Notes: generated by a model not told the origin, from the letters alone. Shown: positions 1 through 57,743, numbered from the stretch's first letter. The stretch: DNA of 64,000 bases from an uncultured bacterium (GCA_963722655.1 CAVRNT010000001.1:17447-81446); one strand, 5' to 3'. A program made the numbers and translations.

Positions 1-553
1 TAGTTGCTATGTCTATAATCTTACGTTTCTCCCCGGGATCGAAGATTCTGTCATCTGTGCGATTCTCTCCAATGTATAATTTCGCGAAACCGTTAGCTTG
101 GGACACAGCTTTATTTTCAAGAACTACATTAAATCGCTTGTTTTCGTTTGCATTCTTCTGCAACAAATAAAAGTTGGCTGGATCGGGCTCAAAGGCAAAA
201 ACCCTACCAGATTTGCCCACGAGCCCGCTAAAAAGCAGCGTATAGTAGCCTATGTTGGCTCCAATATCTACCACCGTCATCCCATTTCTTATTTCTTTCT
301 TGACCAAATCCGTTTCCGGTACTTCATAAGCCCCGAACACCGATAAGCTCAACCTATCTTCAGGATCCAAATACATTTTGGAACCATTCACCTCGACACA
401 CTTTACATTCTCGTCTTTTACGAGTGAGATAAAAAAAGTGTAAATCTTGGACACGATGCCGATCTGACCTAATCCATAACCCCTGCTAAGGAATTTAACA
501 GTTTTCGCAAATACTTTTCGGCCCAATTTTTTTACTTTTGATTCTTTACTCAT
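1..553 (-). CDS. FkbM-family SAM-dependent methyltransferase (partial, C-terminus beyond window start)
   Basis: Reverse-strand translation from the ATG at 553-551 gives MSKESKVKKLGRKVFAKTVKFLSRGYGLGQ...VVDIGANIGYYTLLFSGLVGKSGRVFAFEPDPANFYLLQKN. The VVDIGANIGYYT and FEPDP motifs are typical of FkbM methyltransferases. The ORF has no stop before position 1. Confidence 0.7.
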   Translation of the reverse strand, partial: MSKESKVKKLGRKVFAKTVKFLSRGYGLGQIGIVSKIYTFFISLVKDENVKCVEVNGSKMYLDPEDRLSLSVFGAYEVPETDLVKKEIRNGMTVVDIGANIGYYTLLFSGLVGKSGRVFAFEPDPANFYLLQKNANENKRFNVVLENKAVSQANGFAKLYIGENRTDDRIFDPGEKRKIIDIAT

Positions 554-1736
554 GTGTTTTGCTTCCGTTGCGCTTTAAAATATCGTCGCATGCAGCCTCA
601 ATTTCGTTTGCGGTCACGCTGCACACACTTTCAGCGATGCAGTTTTCTTTCGTGTAATCGCAAGGAATGGGCCTGTGATAAATTATTCTATGCTGAATCC
701 CGTAAGGAAACCATTTCCCGAAAACGTTCCTAACGCCGTATATCCCGACGACGGGAGTCGCAACTGCCGCGGCGATGTGTACGGCGCCAGTATCATTGGA
801 AATCAACAAGTCACATTTTCTTACCAACGATACGGTTTCAAGGAGCGTCAACTTGCCGGCCAGAATTAACGAGTGGGACTCAGAAATTTGGCGCGCTGCG
901 ATGGCAATTCTTGGCGCATCGTCGGCGCTCCCGATGAAAACGATACCTGCATTATACTCATCAACTAAATATTTTACTACTTCTCCAAACCGCTCCGGAG
1001 GCCACGCGTTAGCTTCCCTTTTGGCTCCAACGTTGATAACAATAATCGTTCTCTTCCCGGCCCCCAGATAATCAAGTAGCTTGCCGATCTTTTCTTCGGT
1101 AAGCTCGGAGGACGGGAAATCAAACTTCACTTTCCCCCCAAAAGGCGCGTACCGGTTCAAAACGTCCAAGATATTTTCGACCTCGCACTTTTCAAAAGAG
1201 TAATCGACTTGGGTGTTCTTGAATAAATTCAGGATGGTGCGCACGCGGAAACCGAACGCCGATCTTGCGCCGATTAGTTTCGCGAAGATCATGTTCCTAG
1301 CGAGTGTCCGAAAGCGGACATAATCATCCGGTATTTGGATAAAAAGGTCGTATTGCTCCCGCTTTAGGGCTTCAATAAACGTTTTCCTCTTATTGGCACT
1401 GTCGATGTCGTCTGAATAATACACCCGCAAATCATCGAGATATTTCGCGCCGGTAAGGAGCTCTTTCCCGCCAACCGCTCCCCGTTTACCGGGAGAGGTG
1501 AGAAGAACTATCTTCGCCTGCGGATAGGCGCGCCTAATCGCGACGAAGGCTGGAATGGCACAGATAACATCGCCGATATTCCCCACTTTGAATATCAAGA
1601 TGCTTTTCGGGTCCCCTGGTCTTCGAAAAAGCAGGCGGCGCAGCGCTTCAAGAACCGCATTCTGGATCCAGAGGATCGCGACGACGATCGATAATTGGAC
1701 CGCTTTCAGGGATGGCGGCCTTATTTCTTGTTCCAT
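546..1736 (-). CDS. glycosyltransferase family 9 (ADP-heptose:LPS heptosyltransferase-like)
   Basis: 396-aa ORF. The C-terminal region LISNDTGAVHIAAAVATPVVGIYG is the GT9 (RfaF/WaaC-like) signature. It overlaps the downstream methyltransferase start by 8 nt. Confidence 0.8.
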   Translation of the reverse strand: MEQEIRPPSLKAVQLSIVVAILWIQNAVLEALRRLLFRRPGDPKSILIFKVGNIGDVICAIPAFVAIRRAYPQAKIVLLTSPGKRGAVGGKELLTGAKYLDDLRVYYSDDIDSANKRKTFIEALKREQYDLFIQIPDDYVRFRTLARNMIFAKLIGARSAFGFRVRTILNLFKNTQVDYSFEKCEVENILDVLNRYAPFGGKVKFDFPSSELTEEKIGKLLDYLGAGKRTIIVINVGAKREANAWPPERFGEVVKYLVDEYNAGIVFIGSADDAPRIAIAARQISESHSLILAGKLTLLETVSLVRKCDLLISNDTGAVHIAAAVATPVVGIYGVRNVFGKWFPYGIQHRIIYHRPIPCDYTKENCIAESVCSVTANEIEAACDDILKRNGSKTHE

Positions 1737-3466
1737 TTATTCAAAACGACGTTGGCCCAGAAGCGCGACCAGTGGCCTACGGCGGGTTTGACTTCGAGCC
1801 ATTTTTGGAACGGGAAGGTAAAACCCATCTTCGGCCGGTCCCAAACCTCGCGCGGCAGGTCCGCGCCAAGGGCTTCGATCAAGAGCCGTTTCGGTTGGCC
1901 GCTCGTCTTGAGCGCCGGCGAGAGGGAGTTTAGGTATTCCACGAGCGGCGGGTCCAAATACGGCACACGCACCTCGAGCGAATGGCGCATCGACATGAAA
2001 TCGGCGTCTTTGAGGAGCTGGTTACTCATATAGAAGTTAACCTCGAGATATGAAAGGAGGTCGACGGGGTGAAGTCGGGCGGCCTCCGGCGGGATGAGCG
2101 CCTCAATTTTCTTCAGAACTTCCCAAACCTCGCTTTCGGGGACATTAAGTGTGCGCGCGATTTCTTCCGGCAGGAAAAGTCCTCGGAGAGCGAGATAAAA
2201 GTAAAGCGGGTGTTTCTTCCGGAGATACCGGAGCCTTTTTGCCGCCGGTTTCGGAACAATCGCGGCCAGCAAGCCGGGTAGAAGAGGGACCATTTGAACA
2301 AGGCGCATTGCTTTCGCTCGCCGGAAATTCTGGTAGCCGCAGAAGATCTCGTCGCTCCCCAATCCCGAAAGGACGGTTTTGAGGCCTGCTGCCCGAGCTG
2401 CTTGGGCCACGAAATAAACGTTCACGCCGTCCACGGTCGGCTGGTCCATCGCGTCAAATACGTCGTCATATTTCGCGAGAAAATCCTCTTTCGTTATCTT
2501 TTCCTCGCGATGATCACTTTTTATCCTCTTAGCTACAAGCTTTTGGTATTTTTGCTCGGAAAATTCCGGTTCGTCGAAGACGATGGATAAAGTTCGGAGG
2601 TTCGACCTCCCGTGGAGGTCGAACCTCCTGATTTTAGCGGCCAAAATCGAGAGCACCGAAGAGTCGGTGCCACCGGAAAGGAAAACGCCAAGGGGCGCGT
2701 CGCTCACAAGGTTCAGGCGGACGGCTTCCTGGAGCAGCCGGCGAACTTCCTGCTTCGCCTCGCTGAAAGAGACTTTTCGCTTATTCGTGAACGGTGCCAG
2801 CGAATCGTAGTACCGGACTTCTTTGGCCTCTCGGCCGTCCCAAACGACGTAGTGGCCGGCCCGGACCGCCCGGACCTCGCGGTAGGTCGTGAGCGGCAGG
2901 GGCACGGAGCCGAAAAGAAGGAAGGCAATCTTCGCATCCCGGTTCTCCGTTAGCGTCACAAAGCCCGATCCCCTTATTGCCTCGACCGTGGAGGCGAAGA
3001 TCAACCTTCGTCCTGAAGACGCGAAATAGAGCGGCTTAATGCCATATTGGTCCCGCACGAGATGGAGGGCGCCGCTCTTTTTGTCGTAAAGTCCGAAGGC
3101 GAACATCCCGCGCAGACGGGCAAACGAGGCCGGGCCGTATTTTTCGAAAAGCGCGAGAATGACCTCGGTATCTGAATGCGTTTTGAACCTCACGCCCTGC
3201 GCTTCCAGCCCCTTTTTAAGCTCGGCGAAGTTGTAGATCTCCCCGTTGAACGTGATGACGAGATCCCCCCGCTCCATCGGCTGATGGCCGTCCGGGGAAA
3301 GATCGATGATGGAAAGCCGCCGGTGGCCGAAGGCCACGGGTGTTGAAACGAAAACTCCTTCGTCATCCGGACCGCGCTTAGCTTGGCAGGCGTTCATCCG
3401 CCCGACCGCGCGCTCCAATTCCCTTTCTTCCCCTTCCTTGAAATAGACCCCGGCGATGCCGCACAT
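1721..3466 (-). CDS. asnB: asparagine synthase (glutamine-hydrolysing) family amidotransferase
   Basis: 581 aa, starts MCGIAG (class II glutamine amidotransferase nucleophile Cys2). SGGTDSS PP-loop motif at about residue 265. In a glycan cluster it may act as a sugar amidotransferase. Confidence 0.85.
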   Translation of the reverse strand: MCGIAGVYFKEGEERELERAVGRMNACQAKRGPDDEGVFVSTPVAFGHRRLSIIDLSPDGHQPMERGDLVITFNGEIYNFAELKKGLEAQGVRFKTHSDTEVILALFEKYGPASFARLRGMFAFGLYDKKSGALHLVRDQYGIKPLYFASSGRRLIFASTVEAIRGSGFVTLTENRDAKIAFLLFGSVPLPLTTYREVRAVRAGHYVVWDGREAKEVRYYDSLAPFTNKRKVSFSEAKQEVRRLLQEAVRLNLVSDAPLGVFLSGGTDSSVLSILAAKIRRFDLHGRSNLRTLSIVFDEPEFSEQKYQKLVAKRIKSDHREEKITKEDFLAKYDDVFDAMDQPTVDGVNVYFVAQAARAAGLKTVLSGLGSDEIFCGYQNFRRAKAMRLVQMVPLLPGLLAAIVPKPAAKRLRYLRKKHPLYFYLALRGLFLPEEIARTLNVPESEVWEVLKKIEALIPPEAARLHPVDLLSYLEVNFYMSNQLLKDADFMSMRHSLEVRVPYLDPPLVEYLNSLSPALKTSGQPKRLLIEALGADLPREVWDRPKMGFTFPFQKWLEVKPAVGHWSRFWANVVLNKWNKK

Positions 3467-3474
3467 AAAAGGCC

Positions 3475-4077
3475 TTATCGCCGCGTTGAAGTGGCGATCG
3501 TTGGGGCGAATTGGTTGAGGAAAGCGGAGACCTGGGTGTCTGTCGGCCAGTAGGCATGGATGGTCTCGGCGGTCCGAATGGCGTCGACCGCATCGTTGTG
3601 AGCGGCGTAAAGTTGCAGAAGCGGATAGAGCGCCGGCGGCAGCTTCGGCCCCTGGGCGAGCACATCGCTGTAGTAAGCGACGGCTTTGGCGTAGTCCGAA
3701 TCGCTGTGGGTGTAGTTCATCCAGAGCGTCGCGTAGATCTGGCCCATCGTAAGCGGCTCCGCGGTGTAGCTCACGTCAATGTACGGCTCGACGTAGTTCG
3801 TGAGCGCCCGCGCGACCGCCTCGCTCTGACCCTTTTGAGAGATGATGCCCACGATGTTCCCCAAAAGGAACTTCACCGTCTCGAACTGTCCAATTGGGGA
3901 ATAGAACTGGAGCGCCTGATTGAAATCGGTATCAAAATCATCCAGCGTCTTCACGTTCTGGAGACCTTGGAGAGCAGTGATATACAGGCTCGCCTTGACG
4001 TAAGGCAGATAAGCGCCGTAGATAAGCGACAGGAAAGCGGCGAGGATGAGCACGGGGATGATTATCGGTTTGAGCAT
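3475..4077 (-). CDS. hypothetical N-terminally membrane-anchored protein
   Basis: 200-aa ORF with a single N-terminal hydrophobic helix (IIIPVLILAAFLSLIYGAY). Tightly packed between asnB and the O-antigen ligase-like gene. No recognisable catalytic motif. Confidence 0.5.
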   Translation of the reverse strand: MLKPIIIPVLILAAFLSLIYGAYLPYVKASLYITALQGLQNVKTLDDFDTDFNQALQFYSPIGQFETVKFLLGNIVGIISQKGQSEAVARALTNYVEPYIDVSYTAEPLTMGQIYATLWMNYTHSDSDYAKAVAYYSDVLAQGPKLPPALYPLLQLYAAHNDAVDAIRTAETIHAYWPTDTQVSAFLNQFAPTIATSTRR

Positions 4078-4090
4078 TGAGTTTGACTTA

Positions 4091-5440
4091 TTAGCTGTCG
4101 GTCTTCAGCTCTTTTCTTTGGAACAAAAAGTATCCGAAAGCCAAGAGCACGAAGACGTTGATGTAGATCGGCAACACGTCGAAGAGCACGAGACCTTGGA
4201 CTAGATAGGCCAGCGCGAGCGCCGGGAGGATCGCCCGGACGAACGGCGGTTTTTGGCTAAGGAGGGTCTCACCCGCCTTCGGCCGAGCGCTCTTGAAGAA
4301 TCCGACGAAGAAGACGACGAACACGCCGAGATACGCAACAGTACCCACAGCTCCCGTTTCGGCCAAACCGTCGAAAATGATGCTGTGGGCCCGGTCGAAC
4401 CAAGCGCCGAAGCCCTGGCTCGGGTCGAAATAATTGATGTTGAAGAACTTATTGAAGACGACCGGGAAGTTCTCCGGGCCCCAGCCGAAAACGGGCCGCG
4501 CGAGGAATCCGTCCCAAGCAATCTGCCACATCACTGCTCTGGTCTGGAAAGTACCAGCTAAAACCGAGATGTCAAAAACACGCGAACCAGGTATGCGTTT
4601 AACGAAGGACGACTGCTGGAACGCCACGAGTAGACCGACGACCACCAATATGAGTGCAATTGCGCCGAGAATCCATTTGCGAAGCGCCGGTTTCATGAAC
4701 GCCGCATAGACCAAGGCGGCAATGAGGCCCACTACGAAACCGATGAAAGAGCCGCGGGTACCGGTCAAAATGAAGGCGGAGAAAAGGAAGGCGGTGATAA
4801 CCCCGAAGAAAACCCAGCCGAGGATTTTCATCTTCTGCCGGTATTTTGTGAAGAGGAGATAAAAAAGATACCCAAATGCAAAGATCAGATAAGCGCCGAC
4901 GTAGGCCGGATTGCCGATGGAGCCCTGGAAACGATAGCCGCCGTCCGTGAAACGCGAACCGACGAAGCCGCCGAAGTTCATGCTGGCAAGATAGCCGTAA
5001 ACGACCATTAAGATCGAGCCCGCGACCATGAAGGTCAAAAAACGCGACCAGTCCTTCTCACCTTTGAAAAGCGTCACGAGGAGCAGGAAGAGGAGATAAA
5101 GGTGGATGATCTGCAATCCGCCCTCCCCTCTTTCAAAATTGGACCAGAAGGACCAGTTGAAGTTAACGCCAAAGACGCAGGCGAGGAGGAAAGCGGCGGT
5201 GAAAATGGAAACCGCGATGCCCAGCGGGGAACGCAGAACTTTCCACAATCTTTTGAGATGCTCTTCGGCACTGGGAGAAAAAAGGAAGCCTGAAAGAAGA
5301 AAGATGAAGCTTAGGTCGATAGCGCCGCGGAAAACGGCGTATTTCCCGACGATGAACGGGAAAAGGGTGAAGGGGGTGACGACAACGACGACGAAGGGGA
5401 CTAAATAAAGGAAAAACCGGGATACTTTGAAATAATCCAT
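4091..5440 (-). CDS. O-antigen ligase / Wzy_C family polytopic membrane protein
   Basis: 449 aa with about 10 predicted TM helices. A periplasmic loop carries GWGPENF...RAHSIIFDGLAETGAVG, matching the conserved His loop of WaaL/PglL/Wzy_C proteins. Confidence 0.7.
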   Translation of the reverse strand: MDYFKVSRFFLYLVPFVVVVVTPFTLFPFIVGKYAVFRGAIDLSFIFLLSGFLFSPSAEEHLKRLWKVLRSPLGIAVSIFTAAFLLACVFGVNFNWSFWSNFERGEGGLQIIHLYLLFLLLVTLFKGEKDWSRFLTFMVAGSILMVVYGYLASMNFGGFVGSRFTDGGYRFQGSIGNPAYVGAYLIFAFGYLFYLLFTKYRQKMKILGWVFFGVITAFLFSAFILTGTRGSFIGFVVGLIAALVYAAFMKPALRKWILGAIALILVVVGLLVAFQQSSFVKRIPGSRVFDISVLAGTFQTRAVMWQIAWDGFLARPVFGWGPENFPVVFNKFFNINYFDPSQGFGAWFDRAHSIIFDGLAETGAVGTVAYLGVFVVFFVGFFKSARPKAGETLLSQKPPFVRAILPALALAYLVQGLVLFDVLPIYINVFVLLAFGYFLFQRKELKTDS

Positions 5441-5483
5441 TGGATTGAAAGATTATAGTACAAAGCGCTGATTTTTAAAAGCA

Positions 5484-5512
5484 AAAGGCCCGCCAAAGGC
5501 GGGCCGATTGCT
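5484..5512 (-). terminator. rho-independent terminator downstream of the giant surface protein gene
   Basis: Hairpin aaaaggcccgcc-aaa-ggcgggcc. On the minus strand it is followed by a U-run. It lies about 35 nt past the stop of the 5547..8909 gene. Confidence 0.6.
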
Positions 5513-5546
5513 TGCTGGTTCTACGCTACCAGAAAACCAATGACTG

Positions 5547-8500
5547 CTAGTTCACGATTATCGGGGAAGGCGAGCCGGTTATGACCGCTGTCGGCAGGTT
5601 GTAACTCGGGTTCGGGCCCAAGTTATTAGCCGTACCGTCACTCCATGTCCACGACGACAGGTTAGTTTGAGTCGTAACCGCCGTACCGGACTGCGATCTC
5701 GTCGAGAGACCGCCGGTGTTCATTACTGCGAAGAACTGGAGAGTCACTGACTGACCAGCGGTAACAGTAATCGCCGGGTTGAACGTAACGATCGTGCTCG
5801 TCCCAAGAGTGCCGATGCCATTACCAGGACCGATGTTCGTGGTAATCCCATTCGCGCCACCGACTGTGTACGTAGCGCCGTTCGCAAGGTTGATAACGCT
5901 CAGCGTAGTTGTCGCCGCTGACGAACTTGCGTTGTACACCGACATCGCTATGGTCGTTGAACCGATCGTAGCGTTCGCACCCGAACCAGCCGTGAAGGTG
6001 AAGGCACCAATTTGCTGGTTAGCCGGGCTGGAACCGGGTGTAGCCGAGACGCCCGCCGCACTCAAGGTCGTGCGCAAGACCGTGAAGGTGTTGCTGTACG
6101 AAGTCGAGGTGGCGGAAGCCGTCTGCTGTGAGGCCTTGCCCTGGTAGTCGATCTGGTTGATCAAGGCCGTGGACGTGGCCCCCGTCGCTGGGTAGGAGGC
6201 GCTCAAGGCGGTGTAGTTGTTCGCATCGGCAATGAGCTTCAAGCCCAACTGGCCGCCCTGCGAGATCGGGATGTTCACACCCACGAACTCGAAGGTGTAA
6301 GGCGAACCGGTTCCGTTCAGGTTGCTACCCGTCGTCGCCGTGCCGCCGTACCAGTTGCCACTGCTATCCTGCAAGCGGAAGTACACGAGGGCGCCGGTCA
6401 AGGACGAAGTCGCCGTCACCCAGACGTTCTGGACGTTGATGGCTTCGTTGTTGGAACCAGTGATCGTGTACTGCGCGAGCTGGACGCCCGTCGTACCCAT
6501 ACCGACCTGAATGCCGGTCGGCATGTTCGTCGCGGCGTAGGACAAGGTCCCGGCCGCAACTACGTTATCCGTCTGGCCGCCGATTGCGGTCGTCAAACCG
6601 CCATTCACGTTCGAGATCGGCTGGTTCGTCGACAGCGCAACGGCTGAAACGCCTGTCGCCGGCATCGAAACCGCCGCGAGCGTGGCCGTGCCGACTCCCG
6701 TCTTCACGTCCGCATAGACGTCGACGATGAGCTGACCGCCAGCCGAGACTTGGAACGGGGTCGAAGCCGAGAAGGTGTAAGTGTTGCCGCTTACTATCGT
6801 GCTCTGGGTCTGGCCAACCTGGGTGGACCCAACCATCACCTTAAGGTTCTGGAAGTAGGTTGCCGCGGTCGAAGAGACCATCACCTGGAGGTTCGAGACT
6901 GAGACCGCCGAGGCCGCCCCCGCCGTCAAGGCGAAGGAACCGATCCTCGCGGCCGCTTGGCCCGCCACCACGTTCACCGTGCCCAAACCGCTGTTCTGGG
7001 TCGCAGTGAGGATGTTGGTGCTCGCGGTGAGCTGGTTACCCGACTGGCCGGCATTTGAAATCGCAGCCAATGAGGTGTAACCCTGACCGACAATCGAGTT
7101 AATCGATGCGGTCAAGGTGCCGGTCGCCGCCGAAGCAACGTCCGCCACAACCGAGAGAACTCGGGTCTGGTTGGCCTGAATTACGTAGTTCAGGCTGGTG
7201 TACGGCGTTGTCGATGCACTGACCGGATTCTGGGTCGTGCCGATCTGCGTACCTTGATCATCAATCAACTTCAGGTTGTTGATGTTCGAGAGCTGATAGG
7301 TCGGCATAGTCCCGCCTAAGGCGACGCTTAAGCTGGTGATGCGAACCGCTTCACCATTGGCCTGGAAATCGATCTTGCCGATCGTCTGGTTCGTCCCGCC
7401 CGGCAAAACGTAGTTCGAAGGGGTATTAGCGTCCTTCGAGACCGTGAGCGTCCCCGCGCTGACGCTCACGAATGAGCCGTAAGCCGGGAAGGTGTTCAAG
7501 GAGGCGTTACCGCCCGCGGACTGAATCACGCTCGGCAAGAAGCCGATGTTGAACATCATGTCCTTGGTGGAAACGTCGTAGTTGTGCTGGATCGAGAGTT
7601 GGAAGTTGCGGTTCACGCCGCCCACAATGTCCGCATAGACATAGAGGTTGGCCGCTTGACCCGCCGCGAGCTGCATACCGAGGTTACTGAAAACCACGGT
7701 GTTGCCGCTCGAGAGTCCCGGAACCGTCGAGATAAGCGTCCCGGCGTTGTAGAGCTTATAGTTCTGAACGTCGGAAGGACCAGTGCTACCAGTCGAAGTG
7801 AACGTTATGCTGTTCACCTGAACCGCTTGGTTCTGGGCTTGGAAGGTGAACTGGCCGACGTTGAACTGCGTCTGACCGGCGTTCACCGATAATCCGAATC
7901 CGCCACTCGCACTCGTGCCGGTGTAGCCCGCGGAAGCGTTCGTAATCTGAATGCCGCCGAGGTTACCGACCGAAGCCGAGGTCATCGTGTTACCCGTAAT
8001 CGGGAAGGTGCCGCTGACCGGCAGGCTCCCGACGGTCACGATTGACGAGGCTGAAGGCACCGAGAATAGGTAGGTGTGACCGGTCGCGGAGCTAACGATA
8101 CTGACCGCGATGGTCATCTCAACCGACTGACCCGCCGGAACCGTGAAGAGACCGGCTGGGTTGGTGAAGTTCACCGCACCGTTCGAGATGCCGAGGTTGG
8201 TCGCGATGATCGCGCCGCCCTCGTATTTCAGGTACACGTTCGAGAGATCCTGGTCGGAGGACAAACCGCTGCGGTTCACCGTCAAACTAGTGACCGTGAC
8301 CGGAGCACTGCCCGCCGTGAAGTTCATCCGCAAGACTGGCACCACCTCGGAGCTAGCGGCAAGGTTAACTGGAACGTTCCCCGCTACCGGGTTGTCGGCA
8401 GCGAGAGTAACTGAAAGGCCGCTCCCTGCTGGGACGACCACCGTTGTACCACCGGACGTAACCGTAGTTCCGCCCGCGGATGCCACGTAGGCCCGCGTCT

Positions 8501-8909
8501 TGGGGCCGAAGTAGCCGGCGGCCGGGCTGATACCCATGGCTTTCTGGTACGCCGCGAGGGCCGCCGTGGTCAAAGAACCAAAGTAGCCGGTCGGCGCCGA
8601 AATCTTGAGGTACCCGCCGTTGATCAACATTTGCTGCAAAGCGGAAACGTCCGCTCCACTGCTGCCCGTAGTGAGGTCACGGGTATAGCTGTAGGAAGAG
8701 ACGGAAGAACCGCTTGAAGCCTGTAGGGCCTGCAACTGCGTCGTGAGGGCCTGAATCTGGGCCATCAAGGTCGCAATCGTCTGGGCCGTTGTCTGCGCAG
8801 AGGCCGGCAAAATTGAACCCGCGAGCCAAACGGCCGTGGTCAAAGCCAAGCCCACTGCAACAGCTTTTCGACTGAATTTACTCATTTCTGATTGTTTAGG
8901 ACGGATCAT
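5547..8909 (-). CDS. giant secreted Ser/Thr/Gly-rich surface protein with N-terminal peptidoglycan-binding domain
   Basis: 1120 aa. Signal peptide MSKFSRKAVAVGLALTTAVWLAGSILPASAQ. Coiled segment IATLMAQIQALTTQLQALQ. PG_binding_1-like block DVSALQQMLINGGYLKI...YQKAMGISPAAGYFGPKTRAY. This is followed by about 950 aa of low-complexity T/S/G/A/N/V repeats (Ig/beta-sandwich-like). Confidence 0.75.
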   Translation of the reverse strand: MIRPKQSEMSKFSRKAVAVGLALTTAVWLAGSILPASAQTTAQTIATLMAQIQALTTQLQALQASSGSSVSSYSYTRDLTTGSSGADVSALQQMLINGGYLKISAPTGYFGSLTTAALAAYQKAMGISPAAGYFGPKTRAYVASAGGTTVTSGGTTVVVPAGSGLSVTLAADNPVAGNVPVNLAASSEVVPVLRMNFTAGSAPVTVTSLTVNRSGLSSDQDLSNVYLKYEGGAIIATNLGISNGAVNFTNPAGLFTVPAGQSVEMTIAVSIVSSATGHTYLFSVPSASSIVTVGSLPVSGTFPITGNTMTSASVGNLGGIQITNASAGYTGTSASGGFGLSVNAGQTQFNVGQFTFQAQNQAVQVNSITFTSTGSTGPSDVQNYKLYNAGTLISTVPGLSSGNTVVFSNLGMQLAAGQAANLYVYADIVGGVNRNFQLSIQHNYDVSTKDMMFNIGFLPSVIQSAGGNASLNTFPAYGSFVSVSAGTLTVSKDANTPSNYVLPGGTNQTIGKIDFQANGEAVRITSLSVALGGTMPTYQLSNINNLKLIDDQGTQIGTTQNPVSASTTPYTSLNYVIQANQTRVLSVVADVASAATGTLTASINSIVGQGYTSLAAISNAGQSGNQLTASTNILTATQNSGLGTVNVVAGQAAARIGSFALTAGAASAVSVSNLQVMVSSTAATYFQNLKVMVGSTQVGQTQSTIVSGNTYTFSASTPFQVSAGGQLIVDVYADVKTGVGTATLAAVSMPATGVSAVALSTNQPISNVNGGLTTAIGGQTDNVVAAGTLSYAATNMPTGIQVGMGTTGVQLAQYTITGSNNEAINVQNVWVTATSSLTGALVYFRLQDSSGNWYGGTATTGSNLNGTGSPYTFEFVGVNIPISQGGQLGLKLIADANNYTALSASYPATGATSTALINQIDYQGKASQQTASATSTSYSNTFTVLRTTLSAAGVSATPGSSPANQQIGAFTFTAGSGANATIGSTTIAMSVYNASSSAATTTLSVINLANGATYTVGGANGITTNIGPGNGIGTLGTSTIVTFNPAITVTAGQSVTLQFFAVMNTGGLSTRSQSGTAVTTQTNLSSWTWSDGTANNLGPNPSYNLPTAVITGSPSPIIVN

Positions 8910-9129
8910 AAATGGACTCCAATAAGTTGCTCATCCTTATTGTAAGACCGTTTTGACCCGTTTTGTTTTCGACAATTTTTGTTTTTTTCGACTGTTCGAC
9001 TTAAGTTTTCCTTAAGCCGCCGACCTTTAGAAGTTTCGGAAAACCTGGTTCCGCCGCTTTTCGACCCCCGCCTAGAGTGAGGACTAAGCGGCGGAAGACG
9101 GTGGAATCGGTTGTTAATATCTAAAATTT

Positions 9130-9159
9130 AAAAGTCCCGCTTTGAAGCGGGACTTTTAA
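9130..9159 (-). terminator. hairpin terminator
   Basis: aaaagtcccgc-tttgaa-gcgggactttt is a perfect 11-bp stem. On the minus strand it is followed by a T-rich run. Confidence 0.5.
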
Positions 9160-9350
9160 CGGACGGAAAAGCTTTGATTGAATTAACCGACGCCATTCCC
9201 CGAGCAAAAAAGGAATAAGCGACGCTTAATTCAACCAAAGGCGTTCCCTACCCGTTAGCTGGCCTCACTTCCAAGCTAACTTGACTATGTTATACCAAAC
9301 TACAGGAAACCTGCCTGAAAATCAAATCCTTTGGTTTCAATGAATATAAC

Positions 9351-9391: not shown

Positions 9392-10153
9392 TCACCCCAA
9401 AACCCAGGGGACGACGGCGAAGATCAGCACCAAAAATACGGTCAGGATAGTTATCTCCCGAAAAACGTAGCCGTTGTTCAAAAGGCCGCGGGAATGGGCC
9501 AAAAGGACGTCCCGCAAGACCACGAAGACCAGGGTGAGGGCTGCTGCGGCATTCAAGAACCCCAGGGGCAGGAAGGCGAGCAACGCCGCCGTCTCGGCGA
9601 GGATGAGCCCGATCGCCCAAGCGGCCAGGCGCTCCCGCCGGAAGAAACGTTCGGGGGCCGACCGGAAAGCCTCCCGGACGAGGATGGCCGAGAGGGCGAA
9701 GACTGCTAAGAGGAACCCGACACCCCCCCAGAAAGAGGTCTGGCGGGCGCCGGGGAAGAGTTCAAAAAGCAGAGCGGCCGAGAAGGCGAAGAGTCCCGCT
9801 TCGCCGATGTCCGCGGTGAGCGCCCGGTTGGGCCAAAGGAGGCGAACGTCACCCAACCAAAGATACAGGAGGGCGAAGTAGAGACAAGAGACAAGATAAA
9901 ACAAGAGGCCAGAGGAGACGGTGCCTGCGACGAGCGCCCAAACCGCGAGGAGCCAAAAATAGGTCCGGCGGTTCGTCCGCTCCGCTCCCTCGGAAAAATA
10001 GAGCCAAAAAGAAACGGCGAGGAAGACGACGATACCCCAGAAGGAAAAGCCGACGAGGCCGGCGAAAAGCAGGGCGATGAACCCGGCGAGCGCCTTAAAG
10101 AGCAACCTCCACCCGGTTTTCGCGATTAAGGACGATAGTAGCTTTTTCACCAT
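9392..10153 (-). CDS. hypothetical polytopic membrane protein
   Basis: 253 aa, about 7 hydrophobic helices, no motif recognised. The annotated start overlaps the clpB 3' end by 59 nt, so the true start may be internal or an alternative codon. Confidence 0.55.
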
Positions 10154-12737
10154 CTTTAAGGAGACCGCCCACGATCTTTTCCGCGAGGGCGTCCACGATC
10201 ACTTTCTGAATGAGGCGCTTGATCGGCCGCGCGCCGTAGTTCGGGTCAAATCCGTTCTCGACCAAATATTTCTTGACCTCCGGTTTGATGGCGAGGACGA
10301 TGCCCTTGGCCGCCAAGCGCTCTTTGACCTCCCGGAGCTGAATATCAACGATCTGTTCGATGTCCTTGGGTCCAAGCGCGTTGAAGATGACGGTCTCGTC
10401 CAAGCGGTTCAAAAATTCGGGCTTGAACGTCTCGCGGAGGGATTCCATCACCTTGGCGCGGAAATTTTCCTCCTGTTCCTTGAGTTCCTGGCCGTCCTCC
10501 CCGAACTTGAAGCCCAAGCCGGACATCTCGCGGAAGTACTCGCTCCCAACGTTCGAGGTCAGAATGATCACGGTGTTCTTGAAATTGACCGTTTTCCCCT
10601 TGGAATCGGTGAGGCGCCCGTTGTCCAATATCTGGAGCAACAGATTGAAGACCTCGGGGTGGGCCTTTTCGATCTCGTCGAAGAGGACCAAGCTGTAGGG
10701 ACGGTGACGCACGACGTCGGTCAGCTGGCCGCCCTCCTCGTAGCCGACGTAACCCGGCGGCGAGCCGATGAGGCGCGAAACGGCGTGGCGCTCCATATAT
10801 TCGGACATGTCGATCCTGACCAATGCCTTTTCATCGTTGAACATGAACTCGGCGAGGGTCCGGGCGAGCTCGGTCTTCCCGACGCCCGTAGGCCCGAGGA
10901 ACATGAACGAGCCCGATGGCCGGTCGACGTCCGCGAGTCCCGCCCGGCTCCGGCGGAGCGACCGCGCGACGGCCTGGATCGCCTCGTTTTGGCCGACCAC
11001 TCGTTCCTTCAGGACCTCCTCGATCCGGACAAGCTTCTTCATCTCGGACTCGAGCATCCGCGAGACGGGAATGCCCGTCCAACGCGAGACGACTGCGGCG
11101 ATGTCTTCCTCGTCCACCACCTCCTTGATAAAATGCTTTTCGCCGGTGCCCCGACCGCTCGCGGTCTTTTCAATCTCGGCGTATTTCTTTTCCGCCTTCG
11201 GCAGTTCGCCGTAGCGGATCGCCGCGACGCGGTCGAAGTCCCCGCCGCGTTCGGCGGTCTCCGCCTCGCGCTTCAGGTCCTCGATAATCTGGCGCAGGCC
11301 GTGCAAGCCGCTCATCCCGCTCTTTTCGGCCGACCACCGTTTCGTGAGCTTGTCGTTCTCGGTCTTCAGTTTCTTCAAATCCGCCTCGACCGCCTTCAAG
11401 CACTCCTGCTTCCCCTTGGCCCGGCTCTTTTCCTTGACCAAGGCGGAGCGTTCCACCTCGAGGCGGGTCACCTCGCGCCGGACGCGCTCGATCTCGGCGG
11501 GGATGCTGTCGGATTCCAGGCGCCTCGCGGCCGAGGCCTCGTCGATGAGGTCGACGGCCTTGTCCGGCAGGAAACGGTCGGTGATGTAGCGCGCGCCCAA
11601 ATTCACGGCGGCGATCAAGGCGTCGTCCGTAATCTTCAGCCCATGGTGCATTTCGTACTTTTCCTTGAGCCCGCGGAGAATGGCGACGGAGTCCTCGACG
11701 GACGGTTCATCGACGAAGATGGGTTGGAAGCGGCGTTCGAGGGCCGCGTCCTTCTCGATGTAGCGTTGGTACTCCTTGATGGTCGTCGCGCCGATTGCGT
11801 GGAGCTCGCCCCGCGCCAAGGGGGGTTTTAAGAGGTTTGAGGCGTCCATCGATCCTTCGGCCATGCCCGCTCCCACGATCATGTGGATCTCGTCGATGAA
11901 GAGGATAATCTTTCCTTCGGAACGCTGGACCTCCTTCAAAAACGCCTTGAAGCGGTCCTCGAACTCGCCACGGAACTTCGTTCCGGCGATGAGGGAACCC
12001 AGGTCCATCATCACGAGCTCCTTGTTCTTCAAAGATTCGGGGACGTCGCCGGAGATGATCCGTTGAGCGAGACCCTCGACGATCGCGGTCTTTCCGACAC
12101 CGGACTCGCCGATCAGGACGGGGTTGTTCTTCGTCCGGCGCGAGAGGATCTGCATCAAGCGGCGCAGCTCTTCTTCCCGACCGATGACGGGGTCCAACTT
12201 CCCTTCCCGGGCCTTTTCCGTAAGGTTCACCGCATATTTCTCCAAAACCTGGAATTTGCTTTCGGGCGTCTCGTCCGTCACCCGGGTCGCGCCCCGGAGT
12301 CCCGCGAGCGCCTTCATTAAGGCGTCCCGCCGGACGCCGAAACGGACGAGGGCCTCCTGGGCCGCCGAGGGGACCTCCAAGACCGCGAGGAGGAGGTGTT
12401 CGCAGGAGATGTACTCGTCCTTGGCTTTGAGGGCGATCTCGCCCGCTTTATCCAATATCCGCATCAGTTCTTGGGAGAGGTAAAGCTGGCCTACGGCGCC
12501 GCCACCCGTCACGATCTTCGGCAATTGCTCCAAGGAGCGCACGAGGTCCCGCTCTAGTTCCGAGACGCTCACGTTCGCCCGCACGAGGAGCGGCCGCACG
12601 AGCGTCTGGTCGTCGTCCAAAAGGGAGAGCAAAAGATGGAGCGCTTTGAGCTCGCCGCTCCCGTACTTCGCGACGAGGTCTTGGGCGCCCTGGAGGGCCT
12701 CCTGGGCCTTGATGGTGAATTTCTGGAAGTTCGGCAT
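10095..12737 (-). CDS. clpB: ATP-dependent chaperone ClpB
   Basis: 880 aa. Clp_N repeats at the N-terminus. Two AAA+ modules with Walker [14 protein letters not shown] and [13 protein letters not shown] long coiled-coil middle domain lies between them, and there is no ClpP-binding IGF loop. Confidence 0.9.
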
Positions 12738-20965: not shown

Positions 20966-22522
20966 TTAACTTAAAAGTTGCGGCAATAGGCTCTGCCCGG
21001 TCATCTCCGGCGGTTTTTTCAAATCCATCAAAGCGAGTAGGGTGGGCGCGACATCGGAGAGCATTCCGATCGTCGGCAATGGGGTGAGCAGGTCAATCGG
21101 CACCTTCCTTTGATGGTTCTTGGCAACGAGGTAGAAGGGCACCGGGCTCGCGTCATGCTTCGTTTCCGGCTCGCCTGTCTTGAGATCAAGCAGTATCTCC
21201 GCATTGCCGTGGTCGGAGGTGATCGCCATGACGTGTCCCTCGTCCAAGACCCGGCCGAGGAGCCGGTTCATTTCCCCGTCGACGAACCGCACCGCCTCCA
21301 TCGTCGCCTCGTAATTGCCGGTGTGGGCTACCATATCAGCGTTCGCATAGTTCACGAGGATGAAGTCGAAGGTGCCCTCGTCCAAGGCGGCGATCACCCG
21401 GTCGGTGATCGGCTTCGCCATCATCTCGGGATTCTGGTCGTAATGGAAGGTCCCGCTCGACGGGATGAGGATGCGGTACTCACCAGCGAAGGGCGTTTCT
21501 TTGAGGCCGTTGAAAAAGTAGGTCACGTGGGCGTATTTTTCGGTCTCGGCGACGCGCATTTGGCGCTTGCCGGCGTCCGCGAGGACCTGGCCGAAGGTGC
21601 CGGCGATATCCTCGTCGGGAAAGGCCACCGGGTTTCTGAAGGCCGGGTCGTAGCGGGTCATTGTGGCGACGAAGAGGTTCTTGAAATGCCTCACCGGGAA
21701 AGCGGCGAACTTCGGGTCCAGGAACGCCGCTGCAATCTGTTTCATCCGATCCGCCCGAAAGTTGAAGAAGATGACGGCGTCGTTCTCGGCGATCGGGCGT
21801 ACCGCCCCGACGGCCGTCGGTTCCAAGTATTCGTCGTCCAATCCGCGGTCGTAAACCCTGGCGGCCGAGGCGGCGACGTTCACCACGTCGCCCTTCGGCG
21901 CGGTTAAAGCCTCGTAGGCCACCTGGGTTCGCTCGAAATGCCGATCACGGTCCATCGCATAGTAACGGCCCGCGACGCTTGCAACGTTTCCGGAAATGTC
22001 CCGTCCGACGAGGGCTGAGAGCTTCTGCACGAGCTCGGTCACGGACCGCGGCCGACTGTCGCGTCCGTCGGAAACGAGTTGCAGACAGAACTTCTGTCCT
22101 TGCTCGTCGGCGATCTTCACGAGCGCCTCAACGTGCGCGAGCGAAGCGTGGACGTTCCCTTCGGTGAGGAGGCCGAAGAAATGGACCGTCGAGCTGTTCT
22201 TCTTCGCGTGGGCGAAGGCGCCCAAGATCGCCGGGTTGCGGAAGAAGCTGCCGTTACTGACTGCGAGCATTATCTTCGGGAAGTGCTGGTAGATGACCCG
22301 ACCGGCGCCGAGCGTGAGGTGACCGACCTCGCTGTTCCCTTCTTCCTCCCAGGGGAGGCCCACGGCCATGCCCGAGGCTTGGAGGGCGCCGCCCGGGAAG
22401 TTCGCCTGGATGAAGTTCATTGTCTTCGGCTCCGCGCGGTAGATCGCGTTCGCCTCGTTCAAGGGGCCGATCCCCCAGCCGTCGAGGATCACCAGAACAA
22501 AGGTTCGTTTCATTATCTTCAT
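20966..22522 (-). CDS. gpmI: 2,3-bisphosphoglycerate-independent phosphoglycerate mutase
   Basis: 518 aa. Starts with RTFVLVILDGWGIG. ITSDHGN metal-site motif. iPGM length. Confidence 0.9.
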   Translation of the reverse strand: MKIMKRTFVLVILDGWGIGPLNEANAIYRAEPKTMNFIQANFPGGALQASGMAVGLPWEEEGNSEVGHLTLGAGRVIYQHFPKIMLAVSNGSFFRNPAILGAFAHAKKNSSTVHFFGLLTEGNVHASLAHVEALVKIADEQGQKFCLQLVSDGRDSRPRSVTELVQKLSALVGRDISGNVASVAGRYYAMDRDRHFERTQVAYEALTAPKGDVVNVAASAARVYDRGLDDEYLEPTAVGAVRPIAENDAVIFFNFRADRMKQIAAAFLDPKFAAFPVRHFKNLFVATMTRYDPAFRNPVAFPDEDIAGTFGQVLADAGKRQMRVAETEKYAHVTYFFNGLKETPFAGEYRILIPSSGTFHYDQNPEMMAKPITDRVIAALDEGTFDFILVNYANADMVAHTGNYEATMEAVRFVDGEMNRLLGRVLDEGHVMAITSDHGNAEILLDLKTGEPETKHDASPVPFYLVAKNHQRKVPIDLLTPLPTIGMLSDVAPTLLALMDLKKPPEMTGQSLLPQLLS

Positions 22523-22613
22523 TCTAGCTTATTGGTTGTAAGTTGTCGGCTTGGGGTTTATACTTTAGCCATAATAAAGTCGATGAAAAACAACTCATAC
22601 ATTTTAAACATCA

Positions 22614-24134
22614 ATGAATTCAAGCATCCTGATAGCGGGAGCGGCGGTTTTGGGCCTGATCATCGGATATTTGGCGCGCGTCACGGCGGCCAAACGCCTG
22701 CAAAACTCGCTCGAGAAGAAGGCGGAAACGGAGCTCGAAGAGGCTAAGTCAAAGGCGAAAGAGGCGGTCCTCACCGCCAAGGATGAGGCGACCTCAATCA
22801 TCGCCGAAGCCCAAAAAGAAGAAAAAGAGCGCAAGCAGGAGTTGCGCCACCTCGAAGAGCGCCTCATCAAGAAGGAGGACGGCCTCGATGCGCGCGCTCG
22901 GGACCTTGACAGGACGGTCGCCAATTTAGAGGCCAAGGAAAACGCCATCAAAGAACGCGAAGCCGAAGCCGACGAACTTCACGAAAAGACGGTGAAGGAA
23001 TTGGAACGCATCGCGGGCCTCTCGCGCGACGAGGCCAAAAAAGCCATCTTCGAAGAGCTCCAGACGTCCTACCGCCAAGAGCTCGCGGACGCGATGGCCC
23101 ACTTGGAGCGGGAACGCGAAGAGAACGTCGAGGCGAAAAGCTTGGAGGTCCTCACGACCGCGATCCAGCGCTACGCCCGGAACGGCATCGCCGACATCAC
23201 GACGAGCGTCGTGAATTTGCCCGACGAGGAGATCAAGGCCAAGATCATCGGCCGCGAGGGCCGCAACATCCGCACCTTCGAGCGCCTGACGGGCGTCGAG
23301 GTGCTGATCGACGAAACACCGGAGAGCGTCATTCTCTCCTCCTTCGACCCGATGCGGCGCGAGCTCGCCAAGATGGCCCTCGAGAAGCTCTTGAAGGACG
23401 GCCGCATCCAGCCGGCGAAGATCGAGGAGAAGGTGGAAGAGGCGAGACAGGAACTCGAGGCCCGCGTGCAGAAGATCGGCGAAGAGGCGGCTTATGAGGT
23501 CGGCGTGACCGGTCTGCCCAAGGAGATCCTCTATCTTTTGGGCCGTTTGAACTTCCGCACGAGCTATGGTCAGAACGTCCTCACCCACTCCATCGAGATG
23601 GCCCACATCTCCGGCATGATCGCCGCCGAGCTCCATTTGAACGTGGAGACGGCGAAGAAGGGCGCCTTGCTCCACGACATCGGCAAGGCCATCGACCACG
23701 AGGTTGAGGGCACCCACGTCGAGATCGGCCGCAAGCTCCTCAAAAAGTACAACCTCCCCGAAGACATCATCCACGCGATGGAGTCGCACCATGAAGAGTA
23801 TCCTTATGCGACCCCCGAGGCCTACGTCGTGACGGCGGCGGACGCAATCTCGGCCGCTAGGCCCGGGGCGCGCCGCGACACGCTCGAAAAGTACGTGAAG
23901 CGCTTGGAGGACATCGAAAAGGCGGTGAACACCTTCGACGGAGTGAAGCAATCCTACGCCGTTTCGGCCGGCCGCGAGGTCCGGGTCTTCGTCGTTCCGG
24001 AGAAGATCGACGATTTCGGGGCGCTCGAACTCGCGAAAAAGATCGCCCAAAAAATCCAGACCGACGTCCAGTACCCCGGGGAGGTCAAAGTGACGGTCAT
24101 AAGGGAAGTTAAGGCCGTCGAATACGCGAGATAG
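22614..24134 (+). CDS. rny: ribonuclease Y
   Basis: 506 aa. N-terminal TM helix, long coiled coil, KH domain (IGREGRNIRTFERLTGV) and HD domain (LLHDIGKAIDHE). Confidence 0.9.
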   Translation: MNSSILIAGAAVLGLIIGYLARVTAAKRLQNSLEKKAETELEEAKSKAKEAVLTAKDEATSIIAEAQKEEKERKQELRHLEERLIKKEDGLDARARDLDRTVANLEAKENAIKEREAEADELHEKTVKELERIAGLSRDEAKKAIFEELQTSYRQELADAMAHLEREREENVEAKSLEVLTTAIQRYARNGIADITTSVVNLPDEEIKAKIIGREGRNIRTFERLTGVEVLIDETPESVILSSFDPMRRELAKMALEKLLKDGRIQPAKIEEKVEEARQELEARVQKIGEEAAYEVGVTGLPKEILYLLGRLNFRTSYGQNVLTHSIEMAHISGMIAAELHLNVETAKKGALLHDIGKAIDHEVEGTHVEIGRKLLKKYNLPEDIIHAMESHHEEYPYATPEAYVVTAADAISAARPGARRDTLEKYVKRLEDIEKAVNTFDGVKQSYAVSAGREVRVFVVPEKIDDFGALELAKKIAQKIQTDVQYPGEVKVTVIREVKAVEYAR

Positions 24135-47204: not shown

Positions 47205-47205
47205 A

Positions 47206-47550
47206 TCAAATGAAAAGGTGAGCAACGAGATATATCGGGAAGATAAGCCAAACCGCGTAAACGGCGATCGCCAGCGCGCCGAGGACGAGGTAAACAACGC
47301 CGCCGACGATGAGCCGGAAGAGGCGTAGAGGCAATCCGATGACGCGACCGAGGAGCGAGTAGTCGCCGTAGAGCGGCTCTAGGAGGTGCCGGAGGGTGAC
47401 GCGAAAGGCCAAGATCCGATCCAAATCGTGGAACCGCTCGATGAGGAAATTGAAATAGACGCGGGCGCTTCCTAGATACCAATGCCGCAAGAACTCGGCG
47501 ATCCGGAAGAGTAATTGCTCGCCCAAATAAACGAAAACCATCGGATTCAT
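47206..47550 (-). CDS. small hypothetical membrane protein
   Basis: 114 aa with two C-terminal hydrophobic helices. Its stop is 1 nt before the Met32 start of the AAA+ gene. Confidence 0.4.
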   Translation of the reverse strand: MNPMVFVYLGEQLLFRIAEFLRHWYLGSARVYFNFLIERFHDLDRILAFRVTLRHLLEPLYGDYSLLGRVIGLPLRLFRLIVGGVVYLVLGALAIAVYAVWLIFPIYLVAHLFI

Positions 47551-48648: not shown

Positions 48649-48750
48649 ATTGAAAGTATAGGCTTATCATTCCGATTTGACAATATTCACCATTTTGCTA
48701 AAATGGGTTTATCATTTTGGAAGGTCGCCAGTTAACCAGTAATAATCATC

Positions 48751-49023: not shown

Positions 49024-49051
49024 AAAGTCGCTAAATAAATTATCGGCCATA

Positions 49052-57732: not shown

Positions 57733-57743
57733 GATGAGTGGCT

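Follow-up and report, generated by a model that had tools for sequence, protein, structure and literature searches.

In this report, we analyze a gene cluster that fills the first 8,909 nucleotides of a 64,000-nucleotide stretch of DNA from an uncultured bacterium (GCA_963722655.1, CAVRNT010000001.1:17447-81446; the whole stretch is called the window, and positions are counted from its first letter). The cluster encodes a large surface protein rich in serine and threonine, designated BIG, followed by a membrane protein of the Wzy_C family, a membrane-anchored protein with a tetratricopeptide repeat (TPR) domain, an AsnB-like amidotransferase, a family 9 glycosyltransferase (GT9) and a FkbM-family methyltransferase. 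Our main finding is that the Wzy_C and TPR genes form a fixed pair, adjacent in every relative in which this could be scored and mostly linked to the BIG gene, and that the glycan genes beyond them differ from one relative to the next. We give about an even chance to the reading that the locus is the counterpart, in Patescibacteria, of the surface-layer (S-layer) glycosylation loci of Gram-positive bacteria, and that a two-subunit O-oligosaccharyltransferase (O-OTase) glycosylates the S-layer-like BIG.

The homologues of Wzy_C and BIG that we collected come nearly all from metagenome-assembled genomes named Patescibacteria, Paceibacterota, Minisyncoccia, Jorgensen-, Wolfe-, Lipton- and Brennerbacteria, and to judge from these source names the window is that of an ultra-small bacterium, a Paceibacteria-type Patescibacterium. 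Gene order was compared in 80 related loci drawn from GTDB species representatives: the adjacency of Wzy_C and TPR genes was scored in the 74 loci with adequate downstream sequence, the linkage to BIG in the 52 with adequate upstream sequence, and the presence of AsnB, GT9 and FkbM orthologues downstream of the TPR gene in 46. To the left of the window, the cluster was followed on a Logan contig (L082) that is identical to the window across the shared genes; 19 kb of it were covered, all but the final ~6 kb.

Organization of the cluster

Six open reading frames (ORFs) lie between positions 1 and 8909, all on the minus strand, so that transcription runs from 8909 towards 1 (Table 1). An earlier note on this DNA, made by a model from the sequence alone, had placed all six genes on one strand and named the products of five; the shared strand is borne out, and its domain assignments (FkbM, GT9, AsnB-like, Wzy_C, PG_binding_1) are all supported by Pfam and NCBIfam. 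The same note described a tight packing with overlaps of 4-16 nt, which holds for two junctions, FkbM/GT9 (8 nt) and GT9/AsnB (16 nt); at two others the genes stand 8 and 13 nt apart, and the junction of BIG with Wzy_C is a 106-nt spacer. It also had the order of these last two genes reversed, with Wzy_C directly upstream of the 1120-amino acid (aa) protein, when in the sense of transcription BIG precedes Wzy_C. The cluster does not end with the window: it runs past the left edge, and at least nine further glycosyltransferase or methyltransferase genes are found on L082.

The spacer between BIG and Wzy_C carries an intrinsic terminator and then a promoter-like site. An equivalent perfect hairpin with a T-run follows the stop codon of the BIG orthologue in all 34 loci where that ORF could be traced, compared to 13 of 400 random 150-nt control windows. 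Because both signals lie between the two genes, BIG is predicted to be a separate transcription unit outside the Wzy_C operon, and Wzy_C, TPR, AsnB, GT9 and FkbM would form a candidate operon downstream of it.

The Wzy_C protein and its TPR partner

The Pfam Wzy_C domain (PF04932) covers residues 217-371 of the second protein with 67.8 bits (gathering cutoff 31.7; E = 1.2e-18). A profile comparison of Wzy_C with PglL_A, suggested in the earlier note as a check, gave this match and no other: PglL_A was undetected even at E <= 5, and Wzy_C is the sole Pfam match of the protein at that threshold. The His loop which that note regarded as diagnostic and periplasmic is present, at residues 350-366 (RAHSIIFDGLAETGAVG). 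Five residues, R229 (in a TRG motif), R301, R350, H352 and D357, are invariant in 20 of 20 homologues; TPR-only sequences, which misaligned when added, were left out of the Wzy_C alignment. In a profile search against the PDB, the conserved His aligns with that of the ligase WaaL (7tpg, E = 1e-10) and with that of an oligosaccharyltransferase (9rmk, E = 6.6e-7), and the Arg and His residues of the catalytic loop align with their counterparts in both. The fold is WaaL-like and polytopic, with a large external loop between the ninth and tenth transmembrane helices (TM9 and TM10).

The next gene encodes a protein of 200 aa with a single transmembrane helix at residues 1-19 and a TPR_19 match (E = 1.2e-5). 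In all of the 74 loci scored, a homologue of it is the gene directly after Wzy_C (median gap 62 nt), and in a minority of homologues the two are one protein of 635-685 aa in which the TPR domain is fused to the C-terminus of Wzy_C. A word-indexed search with the TPR protein retrieved only three proteins, and its relatives were therefore taken from a full HMMER scan of 1.84 billion representatives; only 244 were found, and among the best 150 about ten are fused, the others being stand-alone.

The fused form gives a view of how the two proteins may fit together. An AlphaFold model of the fused homologue P0050, which is 51% identical to the Wzy_C protein of the window, has a mean predicted local distance difference test (pLDDT) of 92.4 and a predicted TM-score (pTM) of 0.92, and shows, in order, twelve helices arranged as in WaaL, a long thirteenth helix (TM13) and the TPR domain. 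In a Foldseek search of this model, WaaL is retrieved with a TM-score of 0.62, and the C-terminal part retrieves canonical TPRs. Both termini of WaaL are cytoplasmic; the C-terminus of Wzy_C (...QRKELKTDS) and the N-termini of the TPR proteins are positively charged. Given these charges, the topology of WaaL and the extra helix, the TPR domain would be placed outside the membrane, on the same face as the His loop. Wzy_C is thus a candidate catalytic subunit of an O-OTase, and the membrane-anchored TPR protein, which corresponds in split form to the C-terminal TPR of the fused proteins, a candidate subunit for recognition of the acceptor.

The surface protein

BIG consists of a signal peptide (residues ~1-38), a helix (43-63), a PG_binding_1 region (84-145) and six homologous beta-sandwich domains of ~150 aa that span residues ~160-1120. 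The N-terminal peptidoglycan-binding domain announced in the earlier note is recovered by Pfam (PF01471, residues 84-140, E = 3.4e-11). Threonine (13.1%), serine (12.1%), alanine (12.1%) and glycine (11.2%) dominate the composition; Ser and Thr add up to 25%, charged residues amount to 5%, and Cys is absent. The mature protein has a mass of ~108 kDa and an isoelectric point of 5.4. Its AlphaFold (AF2) model, built from a 63-sequence alignment, has a pLDDT of 84.3 and shows a string of beta-sandwiches behind PG_binding_1.

The protein had been described as a series of Ser/Thr-rich repeats. In profile-profile comparisons with hhalign, the six domains, of ~150-170 aa, are indeed mutually homologous (probability 95-99%, E = 1e-8 to 1e-19), but they have diverged beyond detection by self-BLASTP, which finds no repeats, and a Pfam scan finds no model that covers the repeat domain. 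Foldseek against the PDB retrieves generic strings of Ig-like domains (PrgB, mastigoneme, integrin), and the Bacteroidetes-type glycosylation sequon D(S/T)(A/I/L/V/M/T) occurs zero times in BIG. The length of the family is tightly kept, at 1083-1173 aa in 34 loci. We regard BIG as a candidate S-layer-like protein and a candidate glycosylation acceptor.

Secreted proteins with peptidoglycan-binding domains are among the most highly expressed genes of unknown function in three cultured Paceibacteria (PMC10936435). The sole such protein that we could recover (Kuroda et al., supplement) has 693 aa and is encoded away from the Wzy_C-TPR genes of that organism; it is at most a putative homologue of BIG.

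Conservation of gene order

In 38 of 52 loci (73%), the BIG gene shares the strand of Wzy_C and is found within 8 kb upstream of it, usually at a distance of 90-160 nt, and this linkage spans deeply diverged lineages. The synteny comparison called for in the earlier note thus ties Wzy_C to BIG in a majority of loci, and to TPR in all. The two genes are embedded in a wider conserved block, in the order Aminotran_5, SIMPL, HtrA, ClpB, DUF5656-like, BIG, Wzy_C and TPR. In the window, the gene that precedes BIG encodes the 253-aa membrane protein with weak similarity to DUF5656 (Table 1); by tblastn, 26 of 52 loci have an orthologue of it upstream of BIG. The ORF in the window shares ~58 nt with the end of clpB, and its true start may therefore be a downstream ATG.

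Additional Wzy_C genes occur in the relatives. A second paralogue, 25-30% identical and sometimes fused to a TPR domain, lies between BIG and the main Wzy_C in many of them (for example at 7704-8978 in L009, 6308-7399 in L017 and 7725-10004 in L085), and the whole Wzy_C-TPR pair is duplicated in tandem in L038, L048 and L067. The window has neither. These extra copies could be a second OTase or a polymerase.

Genes for a phosphoglycerate mutase and RNase Y (both predicted from their N-terminal sequence) and for an SBP_bac_5 protein (Pfam) lie at 20966-24134 and 28002-29612 of the window, 13-20 kb from the cluster. Seemingly the same genes directly flank Wzy_C-TPR in relatives without an adjacent BIG, which points to local rearrangement of a single ancestral neighbourhood.

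The variable glycan genes

Downstream of the TPR gene, gene content is no longer conserved: an AsnB orthologue is present in 13 of 46 loci, GT9 in 9 and FkbM in 8. On L082, the genes beyond the window edge encode an S-adenosylmethionine (SAM) methyltransferase, a GT1-like protein, a second FkbM, a second GT9, a methyltransferase, a GT2, two methyltransferases and a GT4. At the same place, L083 has a radical-SAM protein, a GT9, a methyltransferase, an FkbM, epimerases and a GT1; L084 has DegT, a GMD-like protein, an epimerase, an FkbM and a GT11; and L085 to L087 have GT4s, methyltransferases, DegT, a GT10-like protein and a GT2. These downstream arrays differ in each relative, and all are rich in methyltransferases.

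The change in gene content coincides with a change in base composition. In the contig of the window, GC content is 57% in the conserved part and 46% in the variable part; by gene, the conserved ones have ~57-60%, GT9 49% and FkbM 41%, and the low-GC variable genes (41-50%) extend over positions 1-1736 of the window and 8948-18607 of L082. This suggests that the glycan cassette is horizontally exchanged, as are those of O-antigen and S-layer glycosylation loci. Together, the drop in GC and the differing arrays are what would be expected of a variable, serotype-like glycan locus located beside conserved genes.

The AsnB-like protein contains Asn_synthase (E = 1.3e-68) and GATase_6/7 domains, has the N-terminal Cys nucleophile (MCGIAG), and may amidate a sugar acid. 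The GT9 protein matches Glyco_transf_9 (Pfam, 103.7 bits, E = 1.3e-29); against the NCBIfam equivalogs for lipopolysaccharide (LPS) heptosyltransferases (RfaC/RfaF/RfaQ), whose cutoffs are 134-569 bits, its best score is 76 bits, and it fails all of them. The FkbM protein, found at its full 216 aa on L082, matches Methyltransf_21 and the fkbM_fam model TIGR01444 (62 bits, over cutoff). The methylated, amidated sugar foreseen in the earlier note is a prediction from enzyme families only. A terminator scan also detected a perfect 15-bp inverted repeat, GGAGGTTCGACCTCC-CGT-GGAGGTCGAACCTCC, at 2596-2628 (+), inside the AsnB-like coding sequence.

A structured leader upstream of the surface protein gene

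Strong secondary structure is predicted in the 482 nt upstream of BIG: on the minus strand, the window from 9300 to 9120 has a minimum free energy of -75.7 kcal/mol (z = -7.7). Three hairpins, P1, P2 and P3, can be drawn in it. P1, with the loop NGUGAGG, of which GUGAGG is invariant, precedes the BIG ATG by 215-500 nt in 34 of 36 relatives and is present in four of four further loci, often with a TATAAT-like box 18-35 nt upstream of it. Across 1.24 Mb of loci, a strict P1 pattern was matched 31 times, nearly always at the leader position. The P1 stem covaries: 83.5% of cells are paired as against 69.3% in shuffled alignments, and compensatory changes affect six of seven pairs. Its covariation score is 0.59 as against 0.32, a value that none of 500 shuffles reached, and all slid controls scored lower.

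P2 is long and variable. P3 lies 60-180 nt downstream of P1, and its stem (G)(U/C)CUCGCU...AGCGAG followed by a U-run is kept in ~28 of 34 loci. In 24 of 29 cases, the P1 loop and the 5' arm of P3 could base-pair over 7-8 nt, compared to 3.6% of control windows, and compensatory P1-P3 changes are seen in L065 and in L009, L012 and L050; in the window itself this pairing is weaker (5 nt). No Rfam family matches the leader, whether gathering or relaxed thresholds are applied. Its possible roles are those of an attenuator or antiterminator, of a 5' structure that stabilizes the mRNA, or of a separate small RNA.

Other features of the window

Elsewhere, the window contains genes of housekeeping function (ClpB, HtrA, RNase Y, RNase J, tRNAs and tmRNA) and a low-GC mobile and restriction-modification region. 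Two paralogous chaperones of the ClpB/Clp-type AAA+ family are encoded, at 10095-12737 (-) and 44724-47297 (-); the former belongs to the conserved Aminotran_5-SIMPL-HtrA-ClpB block that precedes BIG in the relatives. The low-GC region (~47800-64000, 38-53% GC) resembles a mobile or defence island that has become integrated. Its genes encode the recombinase and DNA methylases listed in Table 1, small proteins whose N-terminal sequences resemble helix-turn-helix regulators, and several proteins to which Pfam gave no match. Rfam detects the LOOT RNA motif (RF03000) at 57782-57900 (-), with 81 bits and E = 9e-14, in the intergenic space that separates a 205-aa gene of unknown function from a 253-aa gene in this region.

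Table 1. Positions of the genes and signals discussed in the text, counted from the first letter of the window
Feature	Position	Strand	Remarks
FkbM-family SAM methyltransferase	1-553	-	sixth gene in transcription order; truncated at the window edge after the N-terminal 184 of 216 aa
GT9 glycosyltransferase, 396 aa	546-1736	-	fifth gene
AsnB-like amidotransferase, 581 aa	1721-3466	-	fourth gene
TM and TPR protein, 200 aa	3475-4077	-	third gene
Wzy_C protein, 449 aa	4091-5440	-	second gene
Promoter-like site TTTAAA-16-TATAAT	5452-5479	-	agrees at 10 of 12 positions, 12 nt before the Wzy_C ATG; consensus match only
Putative intrinsic terminator of BIG	5477-5505	-	GGCCCGCC-TTT-GGCGGGCC then TTTTGCTTTT; perfect stem of 8 GC pairs (5505-5487) and T-run
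BIG surface protein, 1120 aa	5547-8909	-	first gene
Structured leader or small RNA	9120-9300	-	extended -10-like TGgTATAAC (9297-9289) and hairpins P1, P2 and P3
P1 hairpin	9280-9254	-	loop AAGUGAGG
P3 hairpin	9159-9128	-	terminator-like
Polytopic membrane protein, 253 aa	9392-10153	-	6-7 hydrophobic segments; weak DUF5656 (PF18900) match
Two N6/N4 DNA methylases	51446-53456		low-GC region
Large serine recombinase	55324-56688		low-GC region
HsdR	58762-61575		Type I restriction-modification
HsdS	62355-63074		Type I restriction-modification
Probable HsdM	63071-64000		sequence inspection only

Discussion

The proposal of the earlier note, a dedicated O-OTase that glycosylates the surface protein, keeps its core: the linkage of Wzy_C to BIG, the universal TPR partner and a layout like that of S-layer glycosylation (slg) clusters all support it. 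That the enzyme is dedicated to BIG is doubtful, given the 14 of 52 loci in which the two are not linked. On the reading that we favour, BIG would be exported by way of its signal peptide, anchored non-covalently to peptidoglycan by PG_binding_1, and would project its six Ig-like domains as an abundant, S-layer-like coat protein, expressed from its own unit, whose leader is long and structured and whose terminator is strong. Wzy_C, with its WaaL fold, and the membrane-anchored TPR protein would work as a two-subunit O-OTase on the outer face of the membrane, in which the TPR subunit would bind the protein acceptor and the Arg/His loop of Wzy_C would move a glycan linked to undecaprenyl-pyrophosphate (Und-PP) en bloc to Ser or Thr (or Tyr) residues of BIG; other secreted proteins might also be modified. 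The glycan would be built by the low-GC, locus-specific genes (AsnB-like, two GT9, GT2, GT4, GT1-like, two FkbM and four other methyltransferases), and because this array is locus-specific and rich in methyltransferases, the product would be variable among strains and probably heavily O-methylated.

The closest parallels are the slg clusters of Geobacillus stearothermophilus NRS 2004/3a and Paenibacillus alvei. WsaB and WsfB, the predicted O-OTases of these clusters, carry a Wzy_C domain; WsfB, like PglL, has a C-terminal TPR, and WsaB has none but is encoded next to wsaA, the gene of a 168-aa TPR protein (PMC2943079). The wsfA gene of the P. alvei cluster is an asparagine synthase homologue, a methyltransferase caps the glycan, slg genes have a GC content below that of the genome, and the S-layer gene is monocistronic and, in Geobacillus (sgsE), adjoins the cluster (PMC2943079). 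Most of this has an equivalent in the locus studied here: a Wzy_C predicted OTase with a fused or adjacent TPR, an asparagine synthase homologue, methyltransferases and glycan genes of low GC. The gene of BIG, adjacent in 38 of 52 loci and with its own terminator in 34 of 34, would match the monocistronic S-layer gene if BIG forms an S-layer. The likeness is one of layout and domains, and glycosylation is here predicted from the genes.

There are also differences from the slg systems. The phylum is Patescibacteria; the acceptor would belong to an unrelated family that has a PG_binding_1 anchor instead of S-layer homology (SLH) or other domains that bind secondary cell wall polymers (SCWP); the TPR subunit has its own membrane anchor and its gene lies downstream, not upstream, of Wzy_C; and the cluster has GT9 enzymes, with no Wzm/Wzt, rml genes or WsaP-type initiating enzyme nearby. 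Because each component of the locus has a precedent in slg clusters, we regard it as a new case of a known system and not as a novel mechanism.

A similar balance applies to the surface protein itself. The S-layer protein SbsC is built from nine domains, strung together in the manner of beads, behind a domain that binds the wall (PMC13635256). BIG resembles SbsC, SbsB and Sap/EA1 in its size of ~1100 aa, N-terminal wall-binding domain, string of beta-sandwiches, weakly acidic character and lack of Cys. Unlike these Bacillus-type proteins, to which it has no detectable match in sequence or in specific fold, BIG would be anchored by PG_binding_1, and the lattice that it might form is hypothetical.

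Several observations weigh against the reading of the locus as a protein glycosylation system. The nearest solved relative of Wzy_C, by sequence and by fold, is the lipid-A-core ligase WaaL, and the missing PglL_A domain adds to this; TPR domains can bind partners other than proteins. In the 14 loci (27%) mentioned above, Wzy_C-TPR lies by RNase Y, an epimerase-like gene or SMC, with BIG elsewhere; no BIG is found within 10 kb of the Wzy_C gene of L029, and in LiPW_15 the two are on separate contigs. Among the glycan genes, the AsnB-like protein passes the housekeeping asparagine synthase model (TIGR01536, 421 bits, over cutoff) and could be just such an enzyme, and GT9 enzymes are classically heptosyltransferases of the LPS core. 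Neither the 19 kb of L082 nor the 10 kb on each side in five relatives yielded an initiating phosphoglycosyltransferase, a flippase (Wzx) or Wzm/Wzt, and these genes may lie farther off; in one distant Paceibacterium, Wzm/Wzt-like genes lie two genes away from a fused Wzy_C-TPR. As for BIG, no S-layer protein is present among its top 50 Foldseek matches in the PDB, and both its glycosylation and its lattice are predictions.

The LPS connection suggested by WaaL and GT9 can probably be set aside in its literal form. Patescibacteria are monoderm and are not known to have LPS or an outer membrane, and no lpx, waa core or other LPS gene occurs in the 64-kb window. The case held in the earlier note to be fatal to its proposal, a Wzy_C protein that groups with true O-antigen ligases of an LPS-bearing organism, would therefore not apply, and we rejected an LPS O-antigen ligase on account of both the taxon and the obligate TPR partner. 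A ligase of another kind deserves more attention. In S. pneumoniae, also a monoderm, TacL is a Wzy_C ligase that joins teichoic acid chains to a glycolipid (PMC5727136). By analogy, the Patescibacteria enzyme could be a TacL- or WaaL-like ligase that joins the polymer of the variable locus to a membrane glycolipid or another non-protein anchor; GT9 would build a core on this anchor, the product would be a lipoglycan or a teichoic-acid-like coat, and BIG would be merely co-located, perhaps as a polymer-binding protein.

This explanation draws strength from WaaL being the best match in both sequence and structure, from the absence of PglL_A, from the combination of GT9 with a WaaL-like ligase, which recalls the waa (LPS core) operons, and from the unlinked quarter of loci; with TacL the enzyme would share an Und-PP-linked polymer as donor and a monoderm host. 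We nevertheless regard it as unlikely, although it is the main rival of the reading that we favour. TacL is a 397-aa protein with no TPR partner, encoded in a teichoic-acid context and acting on a glycolipid; WaaL (Cupriavidus metallidurans, 7tpg/7tpj) also lacks a TPR, has lipid A-core as acceptor and is only 16-18% identical. The pattern expected of a TacL-type enzyme, a stand-alone Wzy_C protein of ~400 aa in a teichoic-acid locus, is not the one found: the TPR is obligate, and no teichoic-acid-type genes are present in the cluster or among the L082 genes. Where such ligases do without a TPR, it is here universal, and the known cases that have one (WsfB, PglL and WsaA/WsaB) are protein O-OTases. 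The adjacency of BIG across deeply diverged lineages also speaks against mere co-location, and the presence of GT9 in no more than 9 of 46 loci assigns it to the variable part, not to a conserved core pathway.

If the enzyme does act on proteins, its substrates need not be confined to BIG. PglL-type enzymes are general O-OTases, and a broad-spectrum activity such as that of Neisseria PglL would modify many exported proteins (pilins, solute-binding proteins), with BIG as one substrate or none. The Wzy_C-TPR pair is kept at ~50% identity and present in every locus examined, whether BIG is adjacent or not. PglL, PilO (TfpO) and PglS, from Neisseria, Pseudomonas and Acinetobacter, resemble it in that their Wzy_C domain has a conserved His in a large external loop, in the en bloc transfer from an Und-PP-glycan that is proposed here, and, for PglL, in a reported C-terminal TPR; to the solved OTase 9rmk it has a weak similarity (E = 6.6e-7). 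Unlike these enzymes, the pair has no PglL_A, is closer to WaaL than to 9rmk, is found in a monoderm host and mostly consists of two subunits. The adjacency to a single family of surface proteins in 73% of loci suggests a privileged tie, which makes a general enzyme rather improbable, although this alternative largely overlaps with the glycosylation of BIG and differs from it solely in substrate range.

The least convincing alternative is that Wzy_C polymerizes Und-PP-linked units of a capsule or exopolysaccharide, with the TPR protein as chain-length or scaffold factor: the Pfam family includes polymerases, 7tpg was deposited as a 'polysaccharide polymerase/ligase', and the second, diverged Wzy_C of some relatives could divide ligase and polymerase roles, but polymerases co-vary with their repeat unit and count among the genes that vary most in glycan loci, whereas this gene sits in the conserved flank, remains ~50% identical while the glycan genes are swapped and retains the Arg/His loop of WaaL and PglL, which fits a ligase or OTase with relaxed donor specificity and not a unit-specific polymerase, so that we rejected this role, a very improbable one, as the principal explanation.

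We return to the glycosylation of BIG by Wzy_C and its TPR partner as the preferred reading. A more ambitious version would hold all at once that BIG is the S-layer protein of Paceibacteria, that it is O-glycosylated with variable methylated glycans by a two-subunit OTase so far seen only in Patescibacteria-type sequences, and that its expression is controlled by the leader RNA as an attenuator or antiterminator; this joint proposition is tentative, and it is doubtful that all of its parts hold.

Patescibacteria, also known as the candidate phyla radiation (CPR), account for a large share of bacterial diversity. Cryo-electron microscopy shows a surface layer on these cells, and this layer must mediate their attachment to host cells. 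To judge from the searchable literature, the protein of this layer has not been identified, nor has its decoration. The locus offers lineage-wide candidates for a coat protein, for the enzyme that would glycosylate it and for a hypervariable glycan locus comparable to those of O-antigen serotypes. A small, conserved two-subunit O-OTase with an apparently relaxed glycan specificity could also interest glycoengineers. With clear Gram-positive precedents for the mechanism, a known system would be extended and not overturned, and the genes described here are, for a major radiation of uncultured bacteria, the first candidates for a coat glycoprotein system that are concrete and can be tested.

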